A stretch of 62,724 bases of DNA from Acidobacteriota bacterium (GTDB lineage Bacteria > Acidobacteriota > Polarisedimenticolia > Gp22-AA2): assembly GCA_018606725.1 (NCBI GenBank), contig JAGYID010000031.1, forward strand, positions 1 to 62,724, read 5' to 3'. The notes beneath the pieces are model-generated. The model ran no database searches, was not told the origin of the DNA, and saw nothing but the letters and a program-made list of their open reading frames with translations. This document shows, in pieces, positions 3,891 through 18,158 of this stretch. The position numbers and the translations under genes were made by a program. The stretch's first letter is position 1, and the number at the start of each line of letters is the position of its first letter.

Positions 3891-6530
3891 TTGCGCCTCG
3901 GCGAGCTGCGGGAGGCGGAGAACGCCTTCCGCGCCGCCCTCACCGTCGAGCCGGGGGCGCTCGATCCGCGCGTCGGGCTCGGCTACGTCTTGCTGCGGAA
4001 GGGCTCGCCGGCCGCCGCCTCGGACGAGTTCGACGCCGTCCTGAGGCGCGATCCGGACAACGCCGACGCCATCAAGGGGCTCGGTCTGGCGTTGCGCAAC
4101 GAGGCGCGGCTGCCGGAAGCGGCCGAGGCGCTGCGCCGCGCGCTGGCGCTGGCGCCCGGCGACGCCGAGACGAAGCAGATCCTCGAGCAGGTGCTCGGGG
4201 CGCAGGGGGTGACGCGCGAGCGCCGGCCGCGGCCGGCCGTCGACGCGTCGCGGCCGTTGCGCGTGGTGGCGCGCGCCGGCGACGGGCGCCTGGAGATCGC
4301 CGGCCCCTCCGGATTCCGGCCGATCTTCGTCAAGGGCATCAACATGGGCGTGGCGCTGCCGGGGCGCTTCCCCGCCGAGTTTCCCGAGAGGCAGGAAACC
4401 TACGAGGACTGGCTGACCGAAGTCGCGGCGATGGGGGCCAACGTCGTCCGTCTCTATACCCTGCTGCCGCCCGCCTTCTACGCCGCCCTCGAGGCCCACA
4501 ACCGCAAGGATCCGGAGCGGCGGCTGTGGCTGGTGCAGGGAGTCTGGACCGAGCTGCCGCCCGGCGACGATTACGCCGCGGCCGCCTTCGACGACGAGTT
4601 CAAGGCGGAGATCCGGCGGGTCATCGACGCCGTGCACGGCAATCTCGACCAGCCGGCGCGCCCCGGCCACGCGTTCGGCGAGTACCGCGCCGATGTCTCG
4701 TCCGGCACCCTGGCGTGGCTCCTGGGCCGGGAATGGGAGCCGTACTCGGTGCAGCGCTTTGACCGGGCGGGCCGGGCCGCGGGCCGGCCGGCGTTCCGCG
4801 GCGCCTACTTCGAGGCCGCGGCGCAGGCCACGCCGTTCGAGTCGTGGCTGGCCTCGACGCTCGACGCCGCGACCGGCTACGAGACGACGCAGTACCGGCA
4901 GCAGCGCCCGATTGCGTTCGTGAACTGGCCGACCCTCGACCCGCTGACGCATCCCACCGAGGCGACCGTCGAGGAGGAGCTCCGCCTGCGGCGCGAGCGC
5001 GGGACCCCGCCGGCAGAGCCGATCCTCGAATACGACAACGACGCGGTCGGGGTCGACGCGCTGCACATCGTCCCGGGGAAGGAATCGCGCGCCGGACAGT
5101 TCGCCAGCTATCACGCCTATCCTTATTACCCCGATTTCATGAGCCTCGACCCCGGCTACAGCCGGGCGCGCGATGCTGAAGGGCCGTGCAACTACATCGG
5201 CTACCTGCGCGACCTGGTCCGTCACCATGGTTCGCAGCCGGTCCTGATCGGCGAGTTCGGCGTCCCCAGCAGCCGCGGCATCGCCCACCTTCAGAGGGAG
5301 GGGTTCAATCACGGCGGCCACACCGAGACGCGGCAGGGGGAGATCGACGCCCACCTGCTGCGCGATATCCACCAGGCCGGTCTGGCCGGCGGCATCCTGT
5401 TCGCCCTCCTCGACGAATGGTTCAAGCGCAACTGGCTGGTGACCGAGTTCGAGAACCCCGCCGATCGCAACCCGCTCTGGCTCAACGCTCTCGACCCCGA
5501 GCAGAACTACGGGGTGCTGGCGGCCCGGCCGGGCCAGCACGCCTGGAAGGTCCTGATCGACGGCCGATCGGAGGACTGGAACGGCATCCGGACGCTTGTC
5601 GAGAAGCGCAGCGGCGGTCCGGAGGTGCCGCTGGACGACGGTCACGATCCGGCGCGGACGCTGCGGGGGCTGGCGGCGGCCTCGGACGAGGGCTACCTTT
5701 ACCTCCGCCTCGACGTGGAGCGGCTGGACGCGGACGGCGACGGGGCGCCTGACTGGAAAGAGGCCGTCTACGTGATCGGCATCGACACCTACGATGAAAA
5801 GAGGGGCGACCGCCGCCTGCCGGTGAGCGACGGACCGGTGCGCGCCGGCCGGGCCGCCGCGCCGGGCGAGCGGACCGCCTCACCGGCCGGCCTGGAGTTC
5901 TGCGTCATCCTGGACGGGGAGACGACCGCGCGGCTGCTGGTCGACGCCCCCTACGACATCGCCACGCACCGCACCCACCGCCCCTACGGCTCGGTGGCGA
6001 ATGACGACGGTCGCTTCGTCGAAATCAGGCAGACGACCAACCGAGGGCGGTTCGGGCGGGACGGGACCGAGTACCCCGCGCAGGGGTACAGCCTGTCGCC
6101 GCTCCGGCACGGGTCCATCGATCGGCGCGACTCCGACTACAATACGCTCGCCGACTGGCGCGTCGGGCGCGCCGGCGACTTCATCGAAGTCCGACTCGGG
6201 TGGGGCTTGCTGAACGTCACCGATCCGTCGTCGCGCCGCGTCCTGCACGACAATCCCGACGATCTCAGGGCGATCGGCACCGTCGTCACCCCCGGATTCC
6301 GCTTCCTCGCCGCCGCCGTCAGGCCGGCGGGAGCCCCCGGAGGGTCGACGCCGGTGGCCGGGCTGGTGACCGATCGGCTGCCCGCCGGGGACTTGCTCAC
6401 CGCGCGCGACCTGCCGCAGTACTCATGGACCGGCTGGGAGCGCCCGACGTACCGCATCGAGAGGAAGGACGCGTGGACGATTCTCAAGACGGCGTTCGCG
6501 ACGCTGCCGTCCGAACCGGCCGGCGAGTGA
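3891..6530 (+). CDS. TPR-repeat protein fused to a TIM-barrel glycoside-hydrolase-like domain and a C-terminal beta-rich domain (5' end uncertain)
   Basis: 879-aa ORF with strong GC3 coding bias. N-terminal TPR motifs. Hydrolase-like blocks: FVKGINMGV, GANVVRLYTLLPP, FVNWPTLDP and PVLIGEFGVPSS. No signal peptide. A TPR motif continues upstream of the first canonical start. Confidence 0.7.
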   Translation: MRLGELREAENAFRAALTVEPGALDPRVGLGYVLLRKGSPAAASDEFDAVLRRDPDNADAIKGLGLALRNEARLPEAAEALRRALALAPGDAETKQILEQVLGAQGVTRERRPRPAVDASRPLRVVARAGDGRLEIAGPSGFRPIFVKGINMGVALPGRFPAEFPERQETYEDWLTEVAAMGANVVRLYTLLPPAFYAALEAHNRKDPERRLWLVQGVWTELPPGDDYAAAAFDDEFKAEIRRVIDAVHGNLDQPARPGHAFGEYRADVSSGTLAWLLGREWEPYSVQRFDRAGRAAGRPAFRGAYFEAAAQATPFESWLASTLDAATGYETTQYRQQRPIAFVNWPTLDPLTHPTEATVEEELRLRRERGTPPAEPILEYDNDAVGVDALHIVPGKESRAGQFASYHAYPYYPDFMSLDPGYSRARDAEGPCNYIGYLRDLVRHHGSQPVLIGEFGVPSSRGIAHLQREGFNHGGHTETRQGEIDAHLLRDIHQAGLAGGILFALLDEWFKRNWLVTEFENPADRNPLWLNALDPEQNYGVLAARPGQHAWKVLIDGRSEDWNGIRTLVEKRSGGPEVPLDDGHDPARTLRGLAAASDEGYLYLRLDVERLDADGDGAPDWKEAVYVIGIDTYDEKRGDRRLPVSDGPVRAGRAAAPGERTASPAGLEFCVILDGETTARLLVDAPYDIATHRTHRPYGSVANDDGRFVEIRQTTNRGRFGRDGTEYPAQGYSLSPLRHGSIDRRDSDYNTLADWRVGRAGDFIEVRLGWGLLNVTDPSSRRVLHDNPDDLRAIGTVVTPGFRFLAAAVRPAGAPGGSTPVAGLVTDRLPAGDLLTARDLPQYSWTGWERPTYRIERKDAWTILKTAFATLPSEPAGE

Positions 6531-8302
6531 GCGACCTCCGGGCCTCCGGGCTGCTCGGCCTCGCTTCGATCCTGGCGCTGCTGCCGGCGCTGGCCGCTCC
6601 CGCCGCCGGCGCCGGCCGCCAGGAGACCGCCCCGGCCGCCGCCGCGCCGCTCACGACGACCGGCGCGACCGACAACCCCGGGGCGACGCCGGCGTCACCG
6701 ACCTTCGAGGACCTCGTGCGCGACGCCGACGCCGCCTTCCGGCGTGAGGATTACAAGGAGGCGCGCCGCCTGTACGCGGCGGCGGTCGGCCTCCGCCCCG
6801 ACGCCCTGCACCCGAGGCGGCGGCTGGCGCTGTTGCAGTCGTGGGACGGCGATCTCGACGACTCGATCGCCAACTACGAGAAGGCTCTGGCGCTGGCGCC
6901 GGGCGATTTCGATCTGAACCTGGAGCACGCCAAAGTTCTCGCTTGGGACGGCCGCTACCAGGAGTCGATCGCCCGCTACGGGGAACTGCGCTCGTCGCAC
7001 CCCGATGACGCGCGCGTCCTCCTGGGTCTCGGCCAGACGCTCGGCTGGGCCGGGCGCTACGCCGACGGCGACGCGGTGTACCGCGACATGGAGGCGCGGC
7101 AGATCGAGCCGATCCAGGCGCACATCGGCCGGGCGCGCCTGATGGCGTGGCAGGGGAACCTGGACGGGGCGACCGACGCCTACCGCGACGTGATCAAGGC
7201 CGATCCCGGCAACCTCGAGGCCCGCATCGGGCTGGCGCAGGTCAACCACTGGCGGGGCCAGGATCGGCAGGCGCAGGCGCAGATCGACAACATCGTTGTC
7301 GATCATCCCGACAGCCGGGAGGCGAAGCAGGTCCAGCAGGAGATTCACGACGCCCTGCGACCGGTCGCCGGCTTCGAAGGATTCCGCTTCAGCGACAACG
7401 AGTCGAACCGGGTCGACAGCGGCACGCTGTCCTATACCTTCCAGGCCGAGCCGCAGACCTCGATCCGGATCGCCCTGTCGACCTACGACGCTTCGTTCCG
7501 CTGCGACGCCGCGACGTTCTGCAACGAGCCGGGCGACGCGGTGGGCGACGAGCTGTCCGACAGCGCACAGGTCCTGATGGGCGGCCTGACGTCGCGGGTC
7601 ATCGGGCCGATCCTGTTCCATGCCCGCCTGGGGGCGACGCGCGAGACGACCCTGGGCGGGAGCGACCGGACCCTCCTGGTCGGCGGCGGGTTCATCCGCT
7701 GGCAGGTCGGCCCGCGGTTCGGCGTGACCGGCAACGCCTCGCGAGACGCGCTCCTGGACACCGTCGTGCTGATCGACCGCGGCATCCGCGTCGACACCGC
7801 CGACATGCGGCTGGAATATCGCTTCCAGCCGCAGTGGCTGCTGTCCGGATCGGGCGGATTCGGGCTCTACTCGGACGGCAACCGGCGCGTCACCGCCGCG
7901 GCCGGGGTGCAGTGGTCGATCCGTCCGGCACGGCCGCGGATCACCGGCACCTTCAGCGCCAGCTACCGCCGCTTCGACGAGGATTTGGACAACGGCTACT
8001 TCGACCCGCTGCGCTACGACTCCGAGCTCATCGTCCTGGGGCTCGGCGACGAGTATCGACGCGGCCGCTGGTTCTGGCAGGCCGAGGGGACCTTCGGCCG
8101 CCAGGCGTTCTCGACCGGGCCGGGGGCCACCGGCGACGCCGGCGACAATGACCGCGTCCAGGGGATCTATCTTGCCGCCGGAACGAAATTCAGCCCGCGG
8201 GCGTCGCTCGAGGCGTACTACTGGCGCAGCGACTATGCCCTGCAGGTCGCCACCGGCTTCACCTCCACGAAGAGCGGCTTCGTCATGAGGTTCAAGCTGT
8301 GA
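6527..8302 (+). CDS. outer-membrane TPR + beta-barrel export porin (PgaA/YaiO-like architecture)
   Basis: GTG at 6527 overlaps the upstream stop (GTGA). Signal-peptide-like N-terminus (LLGLASILALLPALAAPAAGA). About five TPR motifs with recurrent W.G..., followed by roughly 280 aa of alternating beta-strand pattern. Confidence 0.75.
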   Translation: MSDLRASGLLGLASILALLPALAAPAAGAGRQETAPAAAAPLTTTGATDNPGATPASPTFEDLVRDADAAFRREDYKEARRLYAAAVGLRPDALHPRRRLALLQSWDGDLDDSIANYEKALALAPGDFDLNLEHAKVLAWDGRYQESIARYGELRSSHPDDARVLLGLGQTLGWAGRYADGDAVYRDMEARQIEPIQAHIGRARLMAWQGNLDGATDAYRDVIKADPGNLEARIGLAQVNHWRGQDRQAQAQIDNIVVDHPDSREAKQVQQEIHDALRPVAGFEGFRFSDNESNRVDSGTLSYTFQAEPQTSIRIALSTYDASFRCDAATFCNEPGDAVGDELSDSAQVLMGGLTSRVIGPILFHARLGATRETTLGGSDRTLLVGGGFIRWQVGPRFGVTGNASRDALLDTVVLIDRGIRVDTADMRLEYRFQPQWLLSGSGGFGLYSDGNRRVTAAAGVQWSIRPARPRITGTFSASYRRFDEDLDNGYFDPLRYDSELIVLGLGDEYRRGRWFWQAEGTFGRQAFSTGPGATGDAGDNDRVQGIYLAAGTKFSPRASLEAYYWRSDYALQVATGFTSTKSGFVMRFKL

Positions 8303-8318
8303 CGTTCAAGGGGACGTC

Positions 8319-9581
8319 ATGCGCCAGGCGCTGATCCTGGCCATCCTCTGGTGGTCGGGTGGCGTGCTCGCGGCCCTGACGCTCCTGATCGTCGTCAACA
8401 AGGCGATCCGCGAGATGCGCGGCGCCTTCGATCGAAGGCGGCGGGTCATCCTCGGGCCGCTGGTCGAGCGTTACGTCTCCGAGACCGGGCCGCGATCGAT
8501 CCACGACCACCTGCCGCAGCCGCTGCGGCGCCGCGATCGGCGTCTGGCGGAGGCGATCCTGCTGGAGACCGCCCGGACGGCGGGTGGTGCCATGCGCGAG
8601 CGGATCACCGCCGCTTTCGAATCGCTCGGCTCGGTGCGCGCCGCCATCCGCGCCGCGGGCAGCGGGCGCTGGTGGCGGAGGGCGGAGGCGGCCGAGAGCC
8701 TCGGGCTGATGCGAAGCCGGCTGGCGGTCGACCCGTTGATCCGGTTGATGGACGATCCGGCCGGCGAGGTGCGCTTCCGGGCGGCGCGCGCCCTCGGCAT
8801 GATCCGCGGCGGCACCTCGATCCGGCCGCTGGTGCGCGCCCTCGCGGACCCCAGCCGCTGGTCGGCGATCCGCGTCGCGGAGATCCTGATCGGCGCCGGC
8901 GACGAGGCGGTGGACGAGCTGCTCGCCGCCTGGCCGGAGCTGCCGCCGCCGGCGCGGCTGTCGGCGCTCGAGGTGCTCGGACGAACGCGCAGCCGGAAAG
9001 CGGTGCCCCTGCTGCGCGACAATCTCCGGGACGCCAACGCCGACATCCGCGCCCGCGCGGCGCACGCCCTCGGTCTGGTCGGTGACGCCGGCGCGCTCGA
9101 CGATCTGCTGGCCGCCCTGCGCGACCCGGAGTGGCCGGTGCGGGCGATGGCGGCGAAGGCGCTCGGCCGGCTCGCCGACGGACGCGCCGTGGCGACGTTG
9201 TGCGAGGCGCTCAAGGACCGGCAGTGGTGGGTCCGCGCCAACGCCGGCGAGGCGTTGCGGAACCTGGGACCCGAGGGGCGCGACGCCCTGATCCGGATGC
9301 TCGACGCCGACGACACCTACGCGCGGCACCAGGCGGTCGAGCAGCTCGAGCAGGGGCGGATCCTCGACGGCTACATCGCCGACCTGGTCTCGCCCGAAGC
9401 GGCGCGTCGCGAAGCGGCCCTGCAGTTCGTCCGCAAGATCATCTCGCTCAAGAGGGTCGATCGCCTGACCCAGATGGCGGTCGAGAACACCCAGGAAGGG
9501 GTGCGGCGCGCCCTCGGCGCCATCCTCGGCGGCGCGGCCGGGCCGGTCCGGAGCGGCGGCACCGGCGGAGAAGGCTCGTGA
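8319..9581 (+). CDS. membrane-anchored HEAT-repeat protein
   Basis: 420-aa ORF with an N-terminal TM helix (ALILAILWWSGGVLAALTLLIVV). Multiple PBS-lyase/HEAT-like repeats (D..VR..AA.ALG...). RBS AAGGGGA. Confidence 0.8.
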   Translation: MRQALILAILWWSGGVLAALTLLIVVNKAIREMRGAFDRRRRVILGPLVERYVSETGPRSIHDHLPQPLRRRDRRLAEAILLETARTAGGAMRERITAAFESLGSVRAAIRAAGSGRWWRRAEAAESLGLMRSRLAVDPLIRLMDDPAGEVRFRAARALGMIRGGTSIRPLVRALADPSRWSAIRVAEILIGAGDEAVDELLAAWPELPPPARLSALEVLGRTRSRKAVPLLRDNLRDANADIRARAAHALGLVGDAGALDDLLAALRDPEWPVRAMAAKALGRLADGRAVATLCEALKDRQWWVRANAGEALRNLGPEGRDALIRMLDADDTYARHQAVEQLEQGRILDGYIADLVSPEAARREAALQFVRKIISLKRVDRLTQMAVENTQEGVRRALGAILGGAAGPVRSGGTGGEGS

Positions 9582-11041
9582 TCGACGGCGCGCTCGCCCA
9601 GTCGGTCCTGTCGGCGTTCGTGCTGGCGTTCAACCGCTGGGTCATCTACTACTTCATCCTGCTCAACTCCGTTTACGTGCTGCTGTTCCTGGTGTCGCTC
9701 CGGGAGGTGCTGCGCTTCGTCAGGCGGACCTTCTTCTCCGACTACGAGCAGATCCTGCGCTCCGAAATGACCTGGCCGATCTCGATCGTGGTCCCGGCGT
9801 ACAACGAGGCGCGCACGGTGATCGACACGGTCCGCTCGCTCCTGGCGGTCAATTACGGACAGTTCGAGGTCATCGTGGTCAACGACGGATCGACCGACGA
9901 CACGCTGCACCGGCTGGTCGAGGCGTTCGACCTGAAGCGCACCGACCGGGTCTACCGCCGAACCCTGCCGACCGGCGAGGTGCGCGGCATCTATGCCTCG
10001 CTCGCCACTCCGAACCTGGTCGTGGTCGACAAGGGAAAGATGGGCAAGGCCGACGCCCTCAACTGCGGCATCAACGTGGCGCGCTACCCGCTGTACTGCT
10101 CGGTCGACGCCGACTCGATCATCGAGGACAACGCGCTTCTGCGGGTGGTCAAGCCGTTCATGGAGCATCCCGACGAGATGGTGGCGGTCGGCGGCATCGT
10201 GCGGATCGCCAACGGCTGCGAGGTGCGCGACGGGCGCGTGGCCCGCATCGGCCTGCCGAAGAAGTCGCTGCCGCTGTTCCAGGTGGTCGAGTACCTGCGC
10301 GCCTTCCTGTCGGGCCGCATCGGCTGGTCGAGCCTGCGGTCGCTGCTGATCATCTCCGGGGCCTTCGGGCTGTACCGCAAGTCCGAGGTGATCGCGGTCG
10401 GCGGCTACGACCGCTGGTCGGAGACCGAGGACCTCGAGCTGGTCCTGAAGCTGCACGAGAGGCTGCACCGCGATAAGCGCCGGTACCGCATCGTCTTCGT
10501 CCCCGACCCGGTCTGCTGGACCGAGGTCCCGGCGACCTTCCGGGTGCTGGCGCGGCAGCGCAACCGCTGGCACCGCGGGCTGCTGCAGAGCCTGTGGTTC
10601 CACAAGAAGATGATCTTCAACCCCGGGTACGGCGTCATCGGAACCGTCGGCCTGCCGTACCTCGTGCTGTTCGAGACGCTCGGCCCGTTCATCGAGGTGC
10701 TCGGGTATCTCATGATCGGCCTGGCGGCAATCATGGGATTGCTCAACGTCCCGTACTTCCTCCTGTTCCTGATCTTCGCGATCGTGTTCGGCGTGTTCCT
10801 GTCGGTCGCCGCCGTGCTGCTGGAGGAGCTCTCCTTCCGCCGCTACCCCGGCTGGGAGCACCTGGCGATGCTCGTCCTGATCGGCGTGGTCGAAAACTTC
10901 GGCTACCGCCAGGTCCTCGCGCTGTTCAAGGTGAAGGCGTTCTTCGACTTCCTGCTGCGCCGCCGCGCCTGGGGCCGCATGGAGCGCGAAGGATTCAGAG
11001 CAGCCGCTTTGCCTCTCCCACCAGGTACAGCGACCCGCTGA
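9578..11041 (+). CDS. processive family-2 glycosyltransferase (PgaC/IcaA/NodC-like polysaccharide synthase)
   Basis: GTG at 9578 overlaps the HEAT gene stop (GTGA). N-terminal TM helices. Motifs VVPAYNE, VNDGSTD, DADS, TEDLEL and RQRNRWHRG (QxxRW). C-terminal TM bundle. Confidence 0.85.
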   Translation: MIDGALAQSVLSAFVLAFNRWVIYYFILLNSVYVLLFLVSLREVLRFVRRTFFSDYEQILRSEMTWPISIVVPAYNEARTVIDTVRSLLAVNYGQFEVIVVNDGSTDDTLHRLVEAFDLKRTDRVYRRTLPTGEVRGIYASLATPNLVVVDKGKMGKADALNCGINVARYPLYCSVDADSIIEDNALLRVVKPFMEHPDEMVAVGGIVRIANGCEVRDGRVARIGLPKKSLPLFQVVEYLRAFLSGRIGWSSLRSLLIISGAFGLYRKSEVIAVGGYDRWSETEDLELVLKLHERLHRDKRRYRIVFVPDPVCWTEVPATFRVLARQRNRWHRGLLQSLWFHKKMIFNPGYGVIGTVGLPYLVLFETLGPFIEVLGYLMIGLAAIMGLLNVPYFLLFLIFAIVFGVFLSVAAVLLEELSFRRYPGWEHLAMLVLIGVVENFGYRQVLALFKVKAFFDFLLRRRAWGRMEREGFRAAALPLPPGTATR

Positions 11042-12293
11042 CCACGACCAGCCCGGCCTCGCCGGCGGCGTGGCGGGCGAGCGGCAGCGCCTCGGCGATC
11101 GAGGCGGTGGCGCGCACCTCGCCGCCGCCCGGCAAACCGCGCGCGGCGGCCACCGCCGCGAGCGAAGCGGGCGGCGTGACCCGCGGCAGCGGCAGGCCGG
11201 TCACAAAGACGGCGGCGGCGAAGGGGCAGAGAAGCCCGAGCATCTCGTCGGCCGGCTTGTCCTTCATGACGGCGAAGACGAGCGCGATGCGGCGGCCGCG
11301 CTGGTGGTCGCGCAGGTAATCGGCGAGGACGGCGCAGCCGGACGGGTTGTGGGCGCCGTCGAGCAGGATTTCTGGCCGGCCGGGGACGATCTCCAGCCGG
11401 CCGGGCCAGGCGGCGCGCGCCAGGCCGGCGGTGACCGCGCCCGCGTCCACCCCCTCGAAGCCCAAGCGACGGAGCTGCTCGGCGAGCAGCACCGCGACCA
11501 CGGCGTTGTCGACCTGGTGCGCGCCTCGCAGGGCGAGCGTCAGGTGCGGGTACTCGCCGGCGAGCGGCGTGGTCAGCGCGAACGCCGGTGGATCGGGGAG
11601 GGGCGCCTCGGCGCGGACGCGGCAGTCGGCGATCGGCAGCAGAGGCGCTCCGACGCGCTCCGCCATCGCCTGGATCGCCGCCATCGCCTCCGGCTCCTGA
11701 CGGGCGATGACGGCCGGCACCCCCGGCTTGAGGATGCCGGCCTTCTCGCCGGCGATAGCCGGAAGAGTCGATCCGAGCCAGCGGGTGTGATCCATCGCCA
11801 CCCGCGTGATGGCGCAGGCGAGCGGCGTCACCACGTTGGTGGCGTCGTAGGTTCCCCCCATGCCGACCTCCAGCAGGGCGAGCGGCACGCGCTGCCTTCG
11901 GAAGTGCAGGAACGCCAGGGCCGTCGTCGCCTCGAAGTAGGTCGGGTGGTCGCCCGGCGCGAAGGCCTCGGCCCCGATGGCGGCCCGCACCTCGGCCGTC
12001 AGGGCCGCAACCTCGTCTTCGTCGATCATCCGGTCACCGACGACGATCCGCTCCTCGAAGCGGACGAGGTGGGGCGAGGTGTAGACGCCGGGCCGGAGGC
12101 CGGCCGCCTGCAGGATGGCGGCGAGGAAGGCGGTCGTCGAGCCCTTGCCGTTGGTGCCGGCGACGTGAATCGATCGGAAGGCGCGGTGCGGATCACCGAG
12201 GCGCCGGAGCAGCCGGTCAATCCGGTCGAGCCCCGGCCGGATGCCGAGCGACTCGAGGGAGTCGAGCCAGGCGAGCGCGTCCCGATAATTCAT
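10995..12293 (-). CDS. folC: bifunctional folylpolyglutamate synthase / dihydrofolate synthase
   Basis: Mur-ligase P-loop HVAGTNGKGST, followed by TSPHLVRFEERI. I prefer the ATG at 12293 (MNYRDALAWL) over the TTG at 12347. Confidence 0.85.
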   Translation of the reverse strand: MNYRDALAWLDSLESLGIRPGLDRIDRLLRRLGDPHRAFRSIHVAGTNGKGSTTAFLAAILQAAGLRPGVYTSPHLVRFEERIVVGDRMIDEDEVAALTAEVRAAIGAEAFAPGDHPTYFEATTALAFLHFRRQRVPLALLEVGMGGTYDATNVVTPLACAITRVAMDHTRWLGSTLPAIAGEKAGILKPGVPAVIARQEPEAMAAIQAMAERVGAPLLPIADCRVRAEAPLPDPPAFALTTPLAGEYPHLTLALRGAHQVDNAVVAVLLAEQLRRLGFEGVDAGAVTAGLARAAWPGRLEIVPGRPEILLDGAHNPSGCAVLADYLRDHQRGRRIALVFAVMKDKPADEMLGLLCPFAAAVFVTGLPLPRVTPPASLAAVAAARGLPGGGEVRATASIAEALPLARHAAGEAGLVVVSGSLYLVGEAKRLL

Positions 12294-13759: not shown

Positions 13760-14785
<1,026 letters not shown>

Positions 14786-15152
14786 GACTGGCGCGGGCCT
14801 CCGGGGGGTCGACGTGCCGGCAATGATAGGACACCCCCCGCGGGTCGGTCAAGGGAATCCGACTGTCGGCGGGGCTGTCGACAACCCGCCCCGGCCCGTT
14901 CGGATTCTCGACACGATGGAATAAACCTTGCCATTTCAACATGATAGATGCAGGCAGTGAGCCGGGCGTGTGGGCCCACCTGTCGGGGATCTGGACTGTG
15001 GCTTCTGTCAGGAATGCGTCGAATCTCGTCGACAGCCGCGGAGGAGACCAGGGCGAAATTCGGCAAGCCATCCATTCTCAATAGCTTGACCGAAGCGCCA
15101 GCCTCGCCCGCCGTACCGAAAATGTCATGGCACACCCGTTGCGATTACTGCC

Positions 15153-15246
15153 GGCGTCGGACAACGCCAAACCATCCGCGAGGGTGGGACGGAAAGCCGC
15201 GGGTCTCGAATGCACTCCGAGACAGCCGGGCCGCCTCAGGGACGCC
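15153..15246 (+). promoter_or_regulatory. c-di-GMP-I (GEMM-I) riboswitch-like aptamer
   Basis: - Closing helix GGCGUC/GACGCC.
- P2 hairpin CCAUCC-GCGA-GGGUGG with a GNRA loop.
- Conserved GGGACGGAAAGCC linker.
- P3 hairpin CGGGUCUCG-AAUGCACUC-CGAGAC(AG)CCG.
- The conserved blocks match the V. cholerae Vc2 aptamer as I remember it.
- Located 31 nt upstream of the S8 protease ATG. Confidence 0.7.
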
Positions 15247-15277
15247 GACGCGTTCCGGTGACTCCGCAGGAGGCATC

Positions 15278-17248
15278 ATGCAGGGGCCCGCTGGAACCGT
15301 CACACTTCGAACCCTGTTCCGCCACGCCGGAGTCATCCTTGCCGCCGTCATTCTTATCGCCTTCGCCACGTTGTCGAACGTGGCGGCGGCCGGCAAGGGT
15401 CACCTGGCCCCGGACCTGGTCGAGAAGATCAGGAAAGGCTCGCCGGGCGAGACCGTCAGGCTGATTCTCGCGCCGACCACCGACGCCGACGCCGCGTTCG
15501 TGTACGACAAGGCGAAGGCGCACGGCGGCAACGTCCGCAACGCGTTCAGGACCCTCCGCCTGATCGTCCTCGACATGCCGCTGGGCGAGGTCGAGGCGTT
15601 CAGCCAGGAGACCGGGGTCGATTATCTCAGCCCCGATCGCCCGGTCGGCGCCCTGGCGAGCCACCTCCAGACGACCACCGGCGCCAGCCTGATTTATCCG
15701 ACCAGTAACCTGCTGTCGAGCGGGGTCGGCGTCGACGGCGCCGGAATCGGCGTCGCCGTCATCGACTCTGGCGTCGACCCCGATCACTTCGACCTCCGCA
15801 ACGGCGGCTCGCGTCGCGTCATCGCCTCGTACGACTTCGTCGGGTCCGGCAGCCTCGACGACTCGTACGGACACGGCACGCACGTCGCCGGGATCGTCGC
15901 CGGCAACGGCTATTCGAGCCTGCAGTCCGGCGGCGTCGATTACTCCGGCATCGCGCCGAGGGCCAACATCATCAATCTCAGGGTCCTCGACAGCTACGGC
16001 CACGGCACCATGAGCGGCGTGCTGGCGGCGATCGACTACACCATCGCCAACCGGAACATGTTCAACATCCGGGTCGTGAACCTGTCGCTGTCGGCCCCGC
16101 CGGTCGACTCGTACAAGAACGACCCGCTGTGCCAGGCGGTCGAGAAGGCGACCAAGGCGGGGCTCGTCGTGGTCGTGGCCGCCGGCAACTTCGGGGTCGA
16201 CGCCTACGGCAACAAGCAGTACGGCAGCATCGCCTCGCCGGCCAACTCGCCGGCGGCGATCACCGTCGGCGCCACCAATACGCAGCAGACGAACTATCGC
16301 TCGGACGACACCATCGCGCCGTATTCGTCGCGCGGCCCGACGATGTCGCACACCACCGACCCGGTGACCGGCACGGTCGTCTATGACCGGCTGGCCAAGC
16401 CGGACCTGGTGGCGCCGGGTTTCCGTGTCGTGTCGCTGGAGCGCTACCAGAACTACGTCGTCACCAACCACCCGGCGCTGCATGTCTCGACGTCCTGGAC
16501 CAACAATCGCGGCCTGTACATGAAGATGCACGGCAGCTCGATGTCGGCCGGCGTCGTGTCGGGGGCGGTGGCGCTGATGCTGCAGGCCAACCCGTCGCTG
16601 ACCCCGAACCAGGTCAAGGCTGTCTTGATGTACACGGCCCAGATCATGAACGGGCCGGACCTGTTTGAGCAGGGCGCCGGGCAGATCAACATCGACGGCG
16701 CCGTCCGGCTGGCCAAGCGGCTGCGCCCGGATGCCGGCACCGTCGCGGTCGGGCAGACCCTGGTTGGTTACAGCGGTCTACCGCTGCCGCAGAGCACCAT
16801 CGCCGGCGAGTCGTTGATCTGGGACCAGGGGCTCATCTGGGACAGCGGCTGGCTCTCGGGCCAGGCGCTGCTCACGACCCAGCAACAGGCGTACGCCCAG
16901 TCGATCATCTGGGGCGGCGGTCTTTACGGCGCCGGCGTGACCTACGGCGCCGGGCTGTTCGGCAGCGGCTATGTCGTCTACGGCCGCAACGGCCAATGGT
17001 CCGACATCGCGTGGGACGCCGGCACGCTCCTCACCAGCGGCCTGCTGTACAAGAACGTCACATACGGCTCCGGGCTGATCTGGGACTCCAAGGTCATCTG
17101 CGGCGACTTCTTCGTCGCGGGCCCGAGCAGTCTGATCTGGGGCAACGACTCCGGGCTGGTCTGGGGCAACGACTCCGGCCTCGTCTGGGGTCTCGATTCC
17201 GGGCTGATCTGGGCCTTCGACCAGAGCCTGGTGTGGGGGCTGGAATGA
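15278..17248 (+). CDS. secreted subtilisin-like serine protease (S8) with I9 propeptide and a Trp/Gly-rich repeat C-terminus
   Basis: ATG at 15278 is preceded by GGAGG (15269-15273). Signal anchor present. Catalytic triad blocks VAVIDSGVD, HGTHVAG and GSSMSAG. The C-terminal 150 aa are built from L(I/V)WG.DSG-type units. Confidence 0.88.
   Translation: MQGPAGTVTLRTLFRHAGVILAAVILIAFATLSNVAAAGKGHLAPDLVEKIRKGSPGETVRLILAPTTDADAAFVYDKAKAHGGNVRNAFRTLRLIVLDMPLGEVEAFSQETGVDYLSPDRPVGALASHLQTTTGASLIYPTSNLLSSGVGVDGAGIGVAVIDSGVDPDHFDLRNGGSRRVIASYDFVGSGSLDDSYGHGTHVAGIVAGNGYSSLQSGGVDYSGIAPRANIINLRVLDSYGHGTMSGVLAAIDYTIANRNMFNIRVVNLSLSAPPVDSYKNDPLCQAVEKATKAGLVVVVAAGNFGVDAYGNKQYGSIASPANSPAAITVGATNTQQTNYRSDDTIAPYSSRGPTMSHTTDPVTGTVVYDRLAKPDLVAPGFRVVSLERYQNYVVTNHPALHVSTSWTNNRGLYMKMHGSSMSAGVVSGAVALMLQANPSLTPNQVKAVLMYTAQIMNGPDLFEQGAGQINIDGAVRLAKRLRPDAGTVAVGQTLVGYSGLPLPQSTIAGESLIWDQGLIWDSGWLSGQALLTTQQQAYAQSIIWGGGLYGAGVTYGAGLFGSGYVVYGRNGQWSDIAWDAGTLLTSGLLYKNVTYGSGLIWDSKVICGDFFVAGPSSLIWGNDSGLVWGNDSGLVWGLDSGLIWAFDQSLVWGLE
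17132..17245 (+). repeat. in-frame 24-nt tandem repeat (4.75 copies) encoding L(I/V)WG(N/L)DSG
   Basis: Units start at 17132, 17156, 17180, 17204 and 17228. CTGATCTGGGGCAACGACTCCGGG and CTGGTCTGGGGCAACGACTCCGGC are near identical. Confidence 0.85.
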
Positions 17249-18036: not shown

Positions 18037-18158
18037 GGAAGGAGGCACGCCCGAGACGAGGCTCCGTGAGCTGACACCACGAGAGCGAATCGACGCCCGG
18101 CCCCGCGCGCGACGCACGGGGCCGTGGCTTTGAGGACGGACGGCGGGCCGGGACGAAC

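Follow-up and report, generated by a model that had tools for sequence, protein, structure and literature searches.

An S8 (subtilisin-family) protease gene in a 62 724-nucleotide stretch of Acidobacteriota DNA, the whole of which is here called the window, is preceded by an RNA that we judge from its sequence to be a genuine, canonical class I c-di-GMP aptamer (GEMM-I). We consider it likely that this RNA is part of a canonical GEMM-I riboswitch leading a sigma-54-dependent S8 protease operon, and we lean, at about even odds, towards an OFF switch. The aptamer is ordinary in kind, adding one more case to a well-known RNA class, and the locus is of modest interest for a misleading variant label, a recurrent coupling to sigma-54 promoters and a conserved cluster of protease, MASE9-like and HD-GYP/GGDEF genes. 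It also provides a well-supported predicted c-di-GMP effector for the Acidobacteriota, a phylum of soil bacteria in which c-di-GMP has hardly been studied by experiment. The features of the locus are listed in Table 1.

Table 1. Features of the protease leader and its surroundings in the window, with the competing hairpins of three orthologous leaders.
Feature	Position	Strand	Basis or remark
Divergent accD (acetyl-CoA carboxylase carboxyltransferase beta)	13760–14785	−	Pfam Carboxyl_trans, Zn_ribbon_ACC
Sigma-54 −24/−12 promoter, TGGCACACCCGTTGC (TGGCAC-N5-TTGC)	15128–15142	+	GG 15129–15130, GC 15141–15142
P1 5′ strand (element a), GGCGUCGG	15153–15160	+	Extreme 5′ end of the predicted transcript
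J1/2 (ACAAC), then G15166 (= Vc2 G20, ligand contact)	15161–15166	+	cmscan alignment, model position 10
P2 hairpin	15167–15192	+	cmscan structure line
CAAACCAUCC-GCGA-GGGUGGGACGGAAAGCC	15168–15198	+	
AAA linker, A15193 = Vc2 A47 equivalent	15193–15195	+	
P3 hairpin	15196–15232	+	cmscan alignment
CGGGUCUCG-AAUGCACUC-CGAGAC(AG)CCG hairpin	15200–15228	+	
G15233, C15234 (= Vc2 C92) and P1 3′ strand (C15235, U15236, 4-nt bulge, GACGCC 15241–15246)	15233–15246	+	
Alternative hairpin (elements b, c), GGGACGC-CGAC-GCGUUCC, 7 bp	15239–15256	+	Linker MFE
Shine-Dalgarno (SD) AGGAGG 15268–15273, spacer, ATG 15278–15280	15268–15280	+	
S8 (subtilisin-family) peptidase, 656 aa	15278–17248	+	Pfam Peptidase_S8, 8.4e-52
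MASE9-like membrane protein, 263 aa	17245–18036	+	Pfam MASE9 1.3e-05, 25.7 bits vs cut-off 24.3
HD-GYP (HD_5)/GAF/GGDEF protein, 720 aa	18159–20321	+	HD_5 1.2e-46, GGDEF 2.5e-40, plus GAF
L003 hairpin			5′ arm CAACGGGAUGGC, 3′ arm GCCGUUCCGUUG
L011 hairpin			5′ arm CUGCGGGA, 3′ arm UCCCGCAG
L010 hairpin			5′ arm CAGCUGGGCGG, 3′ arm CCGUCCCGCUG

Detection and family assignment of the aptamer

When the entire 62.7-kb window was compared with 4227 Rfam families using cmscan at gathering thresholds, a single match was obtained, at 15157–15239 of the forward strand, with 65.3 bits, an E-value of 3.6e-13 and the full length of the model. The top model was RF03167 (c-di-GMP-I-GGC, threshold 59) of clan CL00126, the c-di-GMP-I clan, and a second model of the same clan also exceeded its own gathering threshold with a lower score than RF03167. 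Judging by the aptamers of two orthologous loci (L010 and L011), for which RF01051 scored best (54.6 bits, threshold 35) and was the sole model of the clan to pass, this second model would be RF01051, and the RF01051 score of the window aptamer would lie between 35 and 65.3 bits. An earlier sequence-only reading of this DNA had proposed that the S8 protease gene is led by a GEMM-I (c-di-GMP-I) aptamer and had named the RF01051 gathering score and an RF01786 control as checks. The clan match together with the Peptidase_S8 domain confirmed that proposal, with RF01051 bracketed above its gathering score as just described, and RF01786 (c-di-GMP-II) gave no match in the window at gathering threshold in the scan with all Rfam families.

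Taken at face value, the top model would place the window aptamer in the c-di-GMP-I-GGC class, with a ligand specificity other than c-di-GMP, and RF03167 was indeed best not only here, at 65.3 bits, but also for most of the orthologous aptamers. The "GGC" of the variant name is said to refer to positions 20/47/92. However, according to the cmscan consensus lines, the conserved cores of the two models differ at one position only, the Vc2 A47 equivalent, where RF03167 has G (GACGCGAAgCc; GGGACGCGAAgCc) and RF01051 has A (GACGCAAAgCc), and the core of the window is GGGACGGAAAGCC (GACGGAAAGCC), with A15193 where the RF03167 consensus has G. The same A was found in 11 of 11 orthologous aptamers. 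The RF03167 score furthermore depended on the sequences surrounding the core, dropping to 52.9 bits and thereby under the threshold of 59 once the P1 flanks were trimmed, with RF03167 still the best model. The L010 and L011 aptamers that scored highest with RF01051 have cores almost identical to that of the window and differ in their P1 flanks, and the same G/A core was labelled RF01051, RF03167 or RF03168 in unrelated metagenome contigs, according to the flanks. A conserved neighbouring GGDEF/HD-GYP gene likewise argues against a ligand other than c-di-GMP. Because the G that defines the variant is missing, we concluded from these sequence comparisons that the RF03167 label on the window aptamer is a scoring effect, and we regard membership of the c-di-GMP-I-GGC class as very improbable. 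For annotation this carries a warning, as the RF03167 and RF03168 models outscore RF01051 on canonical binding-site nucleotides, so that a best-hit label alone would falsely imply an orphan ligand.

One metagenome contig (L103, 1172–1252, reverse strand) was seen to carry a canonical GCCAAACC...GGGACGGAAAGCC core, with G at position 20 and A at position 47, labelled RF03168 "c-di-GMP-I-UAU" at 70.2 bits. We also considered a c-AMP-GMP riboswitch (GEMM-Ib) and rejected it, since that class needs an A at position 20 (PMC7288161; PMC9481103) and the window has G15166.

Structure of the aptamer and its ligand pocket

The three linked elements described in the sequence-only reading, the closing helix among them, were all present where it had placed them, within an accD/protease spacer that it had given as 490 bp and that measures 492 bp (14786–15277). 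GGCGUC at 15153–15158 and GACGCC at 15241–15246 form a perfect 6-bp helix, to which the pairing of G15160/G15159 with C15235/U15236 adds, and P1 covaries across clades (GCGUC/GACGC, GUUG/CAAC, GUCG/CGAC and GCAG/CUGC). The second register that had been pointed out for the P1 5′ strand, GCGUCGG 15154–15160 with CCGACGC 15245–15251, is real, but was judged the less likely of the two, as C15246 is replaced in L005 by an A that makes an internal mismatch in this register and only a terminal one in the first.

P2 comprises the flipped closing pairs C15167:G15192 and C15168:G15191, an AAA bulge and a 6-bp stem (15172–15177/15182–15187) capped by a GCGA tetraloop of the GYRA type at 15178–15181. P3 has a bulged G15199, a bulge of A15224-G15225, a distal stem formed by 15203–15208 and 15218–15223, and a 9-nt loop at 15209–15217. 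The 11-nt tetraloop receptor (CUAA/UAUGG) is absent from P3, and the notion that a GYRA tetraloop goes without the receptor proved to be a published rule, as such loops are almost never accompanied by it (Weinberg 2007, PMC1950547). The description of P3 as a plain helix thus held with regard to the receptor and failed with regard to the small internal loop conserved in the class (G15199/A15224-G15225).

With regard to the pocket, the residues G15166, A15193 and C15234 are canonical in the cmscan alignment, corresponding to Vc2 G20, A47 and C92, whose roles as ligand contacts we took from the literature (PMC4744006). The predicted partners of the universally conserved interhelical Watson–Crick pair between the two hairpins (PMC4744006), C15190 within GAC and G15225 within the AG bulge, are both found at consensus positions. 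The pair next to the pocket, G21:C46 in Vc2, is flipped to C15167:G15192 in a compensatory manner, which differs from both the RF03167 and the RF01051 consensus. Positions 21 and 46 have been named among the ligand-proximal nucleotides (review PMC7288161), and the flipped C:G pair beside the pocket may tune affinity.

One resemblance did not survive the comparison with orthologous leaders. The block AAUGCACUCC in the P3 loop, which the sequence-only reading had likened to Vc2, arises from 8 nt, CGAAUGCA, inserted in the window alone and missing from the two closest orthologous leaders (L004 and L005), and its likeness to Vc2 is therefore coincidental. The minimum free energy (MFE) fold of 15140–15300 missed the aptamer and was not unusual (z = −1.1), which we held to be uninformative for a GC-rich RNA.

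Gene neighbourhood and orthologous loci

The protease has a signal-peptide-like segment at its N-terminus, and a look-up of the exact protein gave no match. The start of the MASE9-like gene overlaps the protease stop codon (ATGA), and a gap of 122 nt separates it from the gene for the HD-GYP/GAF/GGDEF protein, which by its domains is a predicted c-di-GMP turnover enzyme. The arrangement is best explained by an operon of the protease and MASE9-like genes, with the HD-GYP/GAF/GGDEF gene as the conserved next gene. The three genes could together make up a self-contained c-di-GMP feedback circuit. The divergent accD gene is outside the switch and is given as context only.

Some further observations were made on these genes. 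The C-terminal third of the protease (residues ~470–656, window 16700–17248) is without a Pfam match, and its C-terminus has Trp-rich repeats of eight residues (DSGL[IV]WG...) with a 24-nt period, in 3.4 copies at 17132–17213; this Trp-rich region may serve for surface binding or anchoring. Within the 122-nt gap, window positions 18090–18135 hold a GC-rich hairpin, CGGCCCCG...CGGGGCCG, followed by UGGCUUUG, which may be a terminator or attenuator splitting two transcription units. A sigma-70-like promoter (TTGACC, 18 nt, TATCAT) lies at 14823–14852 of the reverse strand, placed to drive accD and conserved in L004 and L005.

The closest genome relatives were Acidobacteriota metagenome-assembled genomes (MAGs). 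Wherever the available DNA reached far enough upstream, the aptamer stood before the S8 orthologue, which was the case in 12 of 12 leaders and for protein identities as low as 54%, and 11 orthologous aptamers were collected from L001–L007 and L009–L011, two paralogues in L006 included. The gene order in the orthologous loci fetched was accD on the reverse strand, a spacer of ~500 bp, the S8 protease gene, a gene for ~240 aa and the HD-GYP/GAF/GGDEF gene. The L006 paralogues belong to a tandem duplication (4880–11078) of the sigma-54 promoter, aptamer, S8 protease gene and ~240-aa gene, with aptamers at 4880 and 8226. No aptamer was found, even at E-values up to 10, in L012 (4645–7059), which has 49% protease identity and the accD/S8/HD-GYP-GGDEF synteny. 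The small MASE9-like gene is also missing from L012, and aptamer and MASE9-like gene may have been acquired, or lost, jointly. L013, at 42% identity and in another context, gave no aptamer match at gathering scores.

A sigma-54 promoter upstream of the aptamer

The TGGCAC-N5-TTGC element upstream of the aptamer is the one exact match to this motif in the window, where 0.06 would be expected by chance, and a sigma-54 element with identical spacing was found upstream of the aptamer in 13 of 13 S8 leaders. Given the usual distance of 12 nt from a sigma-54 element, transcription is predicted to start at ~15154, taken as the base with which the 5′ strand of P1 begins, and the distance from the predicted start to the G20 equivalent is 10–17 nt in all leaders. 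The aptamer would thereby make up the first ~90 nt of the predicted 5′ UTR (15154–15277). Such a conserved promoter ahead of the aptamer suggests layered control, exerted at transcription initiation and in the leader RNA.

A six-frame translation of the window contained neither the GAFTGA nor the Walker A motif of enhancer-binding proteins, and candidate upstream activator sites were not conserved beyond the closest clade. The TCGACA repeats at 14877–14913 were considered as an activator site and set aside, being conserved in the closest clade only. They lie ~250 bp ahead of the sigma-54 promoter, in a block (window 14860–14915) whose conservation extends to L004 and L005 and not to more distant leaders. 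This block holds the repeats TGTCGACAA and TCTCGACAC and the inverted repeat GAATCCGA/TCGGATTC, and could be an activator site or a regulatory site of accD.

When metagenomes were scanned for aptamers with the flipped pair, this natural subtype was met on at least 120 contigs (L014–L133). Among the matches listed, 26 of 124 flipped-pair aptamers outside S8 leaders (21%) had a sigma-54 motif scoring at least 9/10 within 70 nt upstream, against 0.56% of 70-nt windows drawn at random from these contigs. Several of these upstream motifs recur, for example TGGCATTGAAATTGC, so that the independent cases among the matches listed are fewer than 26. The genes downstream of the listed metagenome aptamers are diverse and include PEP-CTERM, PilZ, GGDEF and sigma-54 activator genes. 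A full-text search of the literature, judged by title and abstract, returned no paper about a coupling of sigma-54 with class I aptamers. We tentatively put forward, as a possibility that we hold to be rather less than probable, that a sigma-54 promoter with a class I aptamer is a recurrent two-input module, in which the signal of an activator is combined with the c-di-GMP level and transcription starts at P1.

Tandem arrays of aptamers were noticed on three metagenome contigs, all on the reverse strand. L054 (558–1014) has three complete c-di-GMP-I copies and a fourth pattern match ending at the contig edge, L103 (1073–1359) has three copies at gathering score and a fourth pattern match, and L105 (3809–4124) has three c-di-GMP-I aptamers. 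A survey from 2022 described doublets and 12 triplets of aptamers, with quadruplets unmentioned (PMC9481103).

Expression platform and direction of the switch

The alternative hairpin at 15239–15256 shares 15241–15245 with the P1 3′ strand, and the two structures are mutually exclusive because both use these nucleotides. An equivalent hairpin, beginning at most 5 nt from the C92 equivalent and with a 5′ arm overlapping the P1 3′ strand, was found in 11 of 13 leaders, with arm sequences that vary by clade and Z-scores down to −5.4; the competing hairpin of the window itself was no more stable than shuffled sequences (z = −0.8). The changes seen in L005 preserve the hairpin, with a neutral C to A change in the loop and a U15254 to C change that turns a G·U pair into G–C, and P1 is missing from the unconstrained MFE structure of nearly all leaders. 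On the combined grounds of the conserved hairpin, the covariation in P1, the L005 changes and the near-absence of P1 from the MFE structures, a competition between P1 and the hairpin at 15239–15256 appears well supported as a model. The conserved hairpin competing with the P1 3′ strand, together with the lack of any terminator-like site in 14700–15400, suggests that control is probably translational, in agreement with the switch type proposed in the sequence-only reading.

The SD motif GGAGG at 15269–15273 was confirmed, and GGAGGCNNCAUG in the SD region is conserved in the orthologous leaders. The SD is 34 nt past C15234 and 11 nt past the switching hairpin. The 3′ arm of the hairpin is pyrimidine-rich in all leaders and its 5′ arm is SD-like. 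Unusual SD sequences are matched by 5-nt complements in the 3′ arm, as in UCUCC/GGAGA of L006b, GUCUC/GAGAC of L009 and CCGUC/GACGG of L006a. The released strand was no more complementary to the SD than controls were, with −7.8 kcal/mol for a leader's own SD, −8.3 kcal/mol across loci and −7.6 kcal/mol for shuffled sequences. Two-state folding was performed by segments and on the full leader, in the latter case with the aptamer constrained and three different 3′ ends; the difference in SD accessibility between the free and the aptamer-constrained state varied in sign with the locus and the chosen 3′ end, and these models were not used for calling the direction. The view that an ON or OFF direction cannot be read from the sequence was thereby upheld, the folding models being inconsistent. 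A local CUCC/GGAG hairpin at 15262–15272 was rejected as an element of the platform, as a deletion in L005 leaves its loop too short.

If the same aptamer were instead an ON switch, the P1 3′ region or its neighbours would sequester the ribosome-binding site in the unbound state and ligand-stabilized P1 would free the SD. Such switches are known within class I, Vc1/gbpA being one example (PMC4744006), and candidate pairings exist in the window: GCCUC 15233–15237 with GAGGC 15270–15274, as already noted in the sequence-only reading, GACGCC with GGAGGCAUC, and 15250–15258 with codons 5–8. Some model settings also made the SD more open when bound, from 0.01 to 0.63 at AUG+25 in the window and in the same direction in L009, L011, L006b and L007. 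The GCCUC/GAGGC pairing is, however, broken without compensation in L004 and L005 by a U15236 to A change, L005 no longer has the pairing with the coding region, and the ON design, needing three strands, leaves the conserved partner hairpin upstream of the SD unexplained. We hold an ON switch to be possible but doubtful. Still less probable, and in our judgement unlikely, is an output other than translation, with P1 at the extreme 5′ end governing either mRNA decay through 5′-end protection or Rho-dependent termination. The start at the first P1 base in all leaders, with 10–17 nt to the G20 equivalent, the lack of a consistent SD change in the thermodynamic models and the absence of an intrinsic terminator would all agree with such an output, but that start site is itself predicted, the SD sits only 11 nt beyond the switching hairpin, and the leader following the aptamer, at ~40 nt, offers little room for Rho to load.

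The OFF design that we favour would operate as follows. Transcription would need sigma-54 and an enhancer-binding activator, starting at the first base of P1. Binding of c-di-GMP would lock P1 (15153–15160 with 15235–15246) and prevent formation of the competing hairpin, whereupon the released GCGUUCC strand (15250–15256) would pair with the GGAGGC ribosome-binding site and lower translation. This direction, with a four-strand layout like that of thiM, is the weakest step of the reading, and we put its chances at about even.

Comparison with known systems

The P1, P3 and tetraloop features of the window aptamer resemble the RF03167 seed, but the G that defines RF03167 at the A47 position is absent and the aptamer should not be classed there. 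With Vc2 and RF01051 it shares the three-helix junction, the GNRA tetraloop on the first hairpin, the AAA linker, the equivalents of G20, A47 and C92, the interhelical C–G partners and the position in a 5′ UTR, and the association with secreted, membrane and c-di-GMP-turnover genes is that of the RF01051 class. It differs from Vc2 and RF01051 in having a flipped C:G in place of G21:C46, a GYRA loop without the receptor, a short and interrupted P1 that begins at the predicted +1, an Acidobacteriota host and a predicted transcript from a sigma-54 promoter.

The translational OFF design of thiM is built on four strands. As in that type of platform (P1, anti-anti-SD, anti-SD and SD), the P1 3′ strand of the window has a conserved alternative partner that is pyrimidine-rich and located upstream of the SD; unlike in thiM, the pairing of anti-SD with SD in the window is without statistical support.

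Class I c-di-GMP switches of Clostridioides difficile mostly use terminators. [quoted passage not shown] The two systems have in common that a secreted protease is led by a class I c-di-GMP riboswitch, with an M34 zinc metalloprotease in a Firmicute host there and an S8 serine protease here, and with unrelated expression platforms, the direction in the window being only putative. The window would thereby link c-di-GMP to a secreted subtilase, just as c-di-GMP controls a protease in C. difficile.
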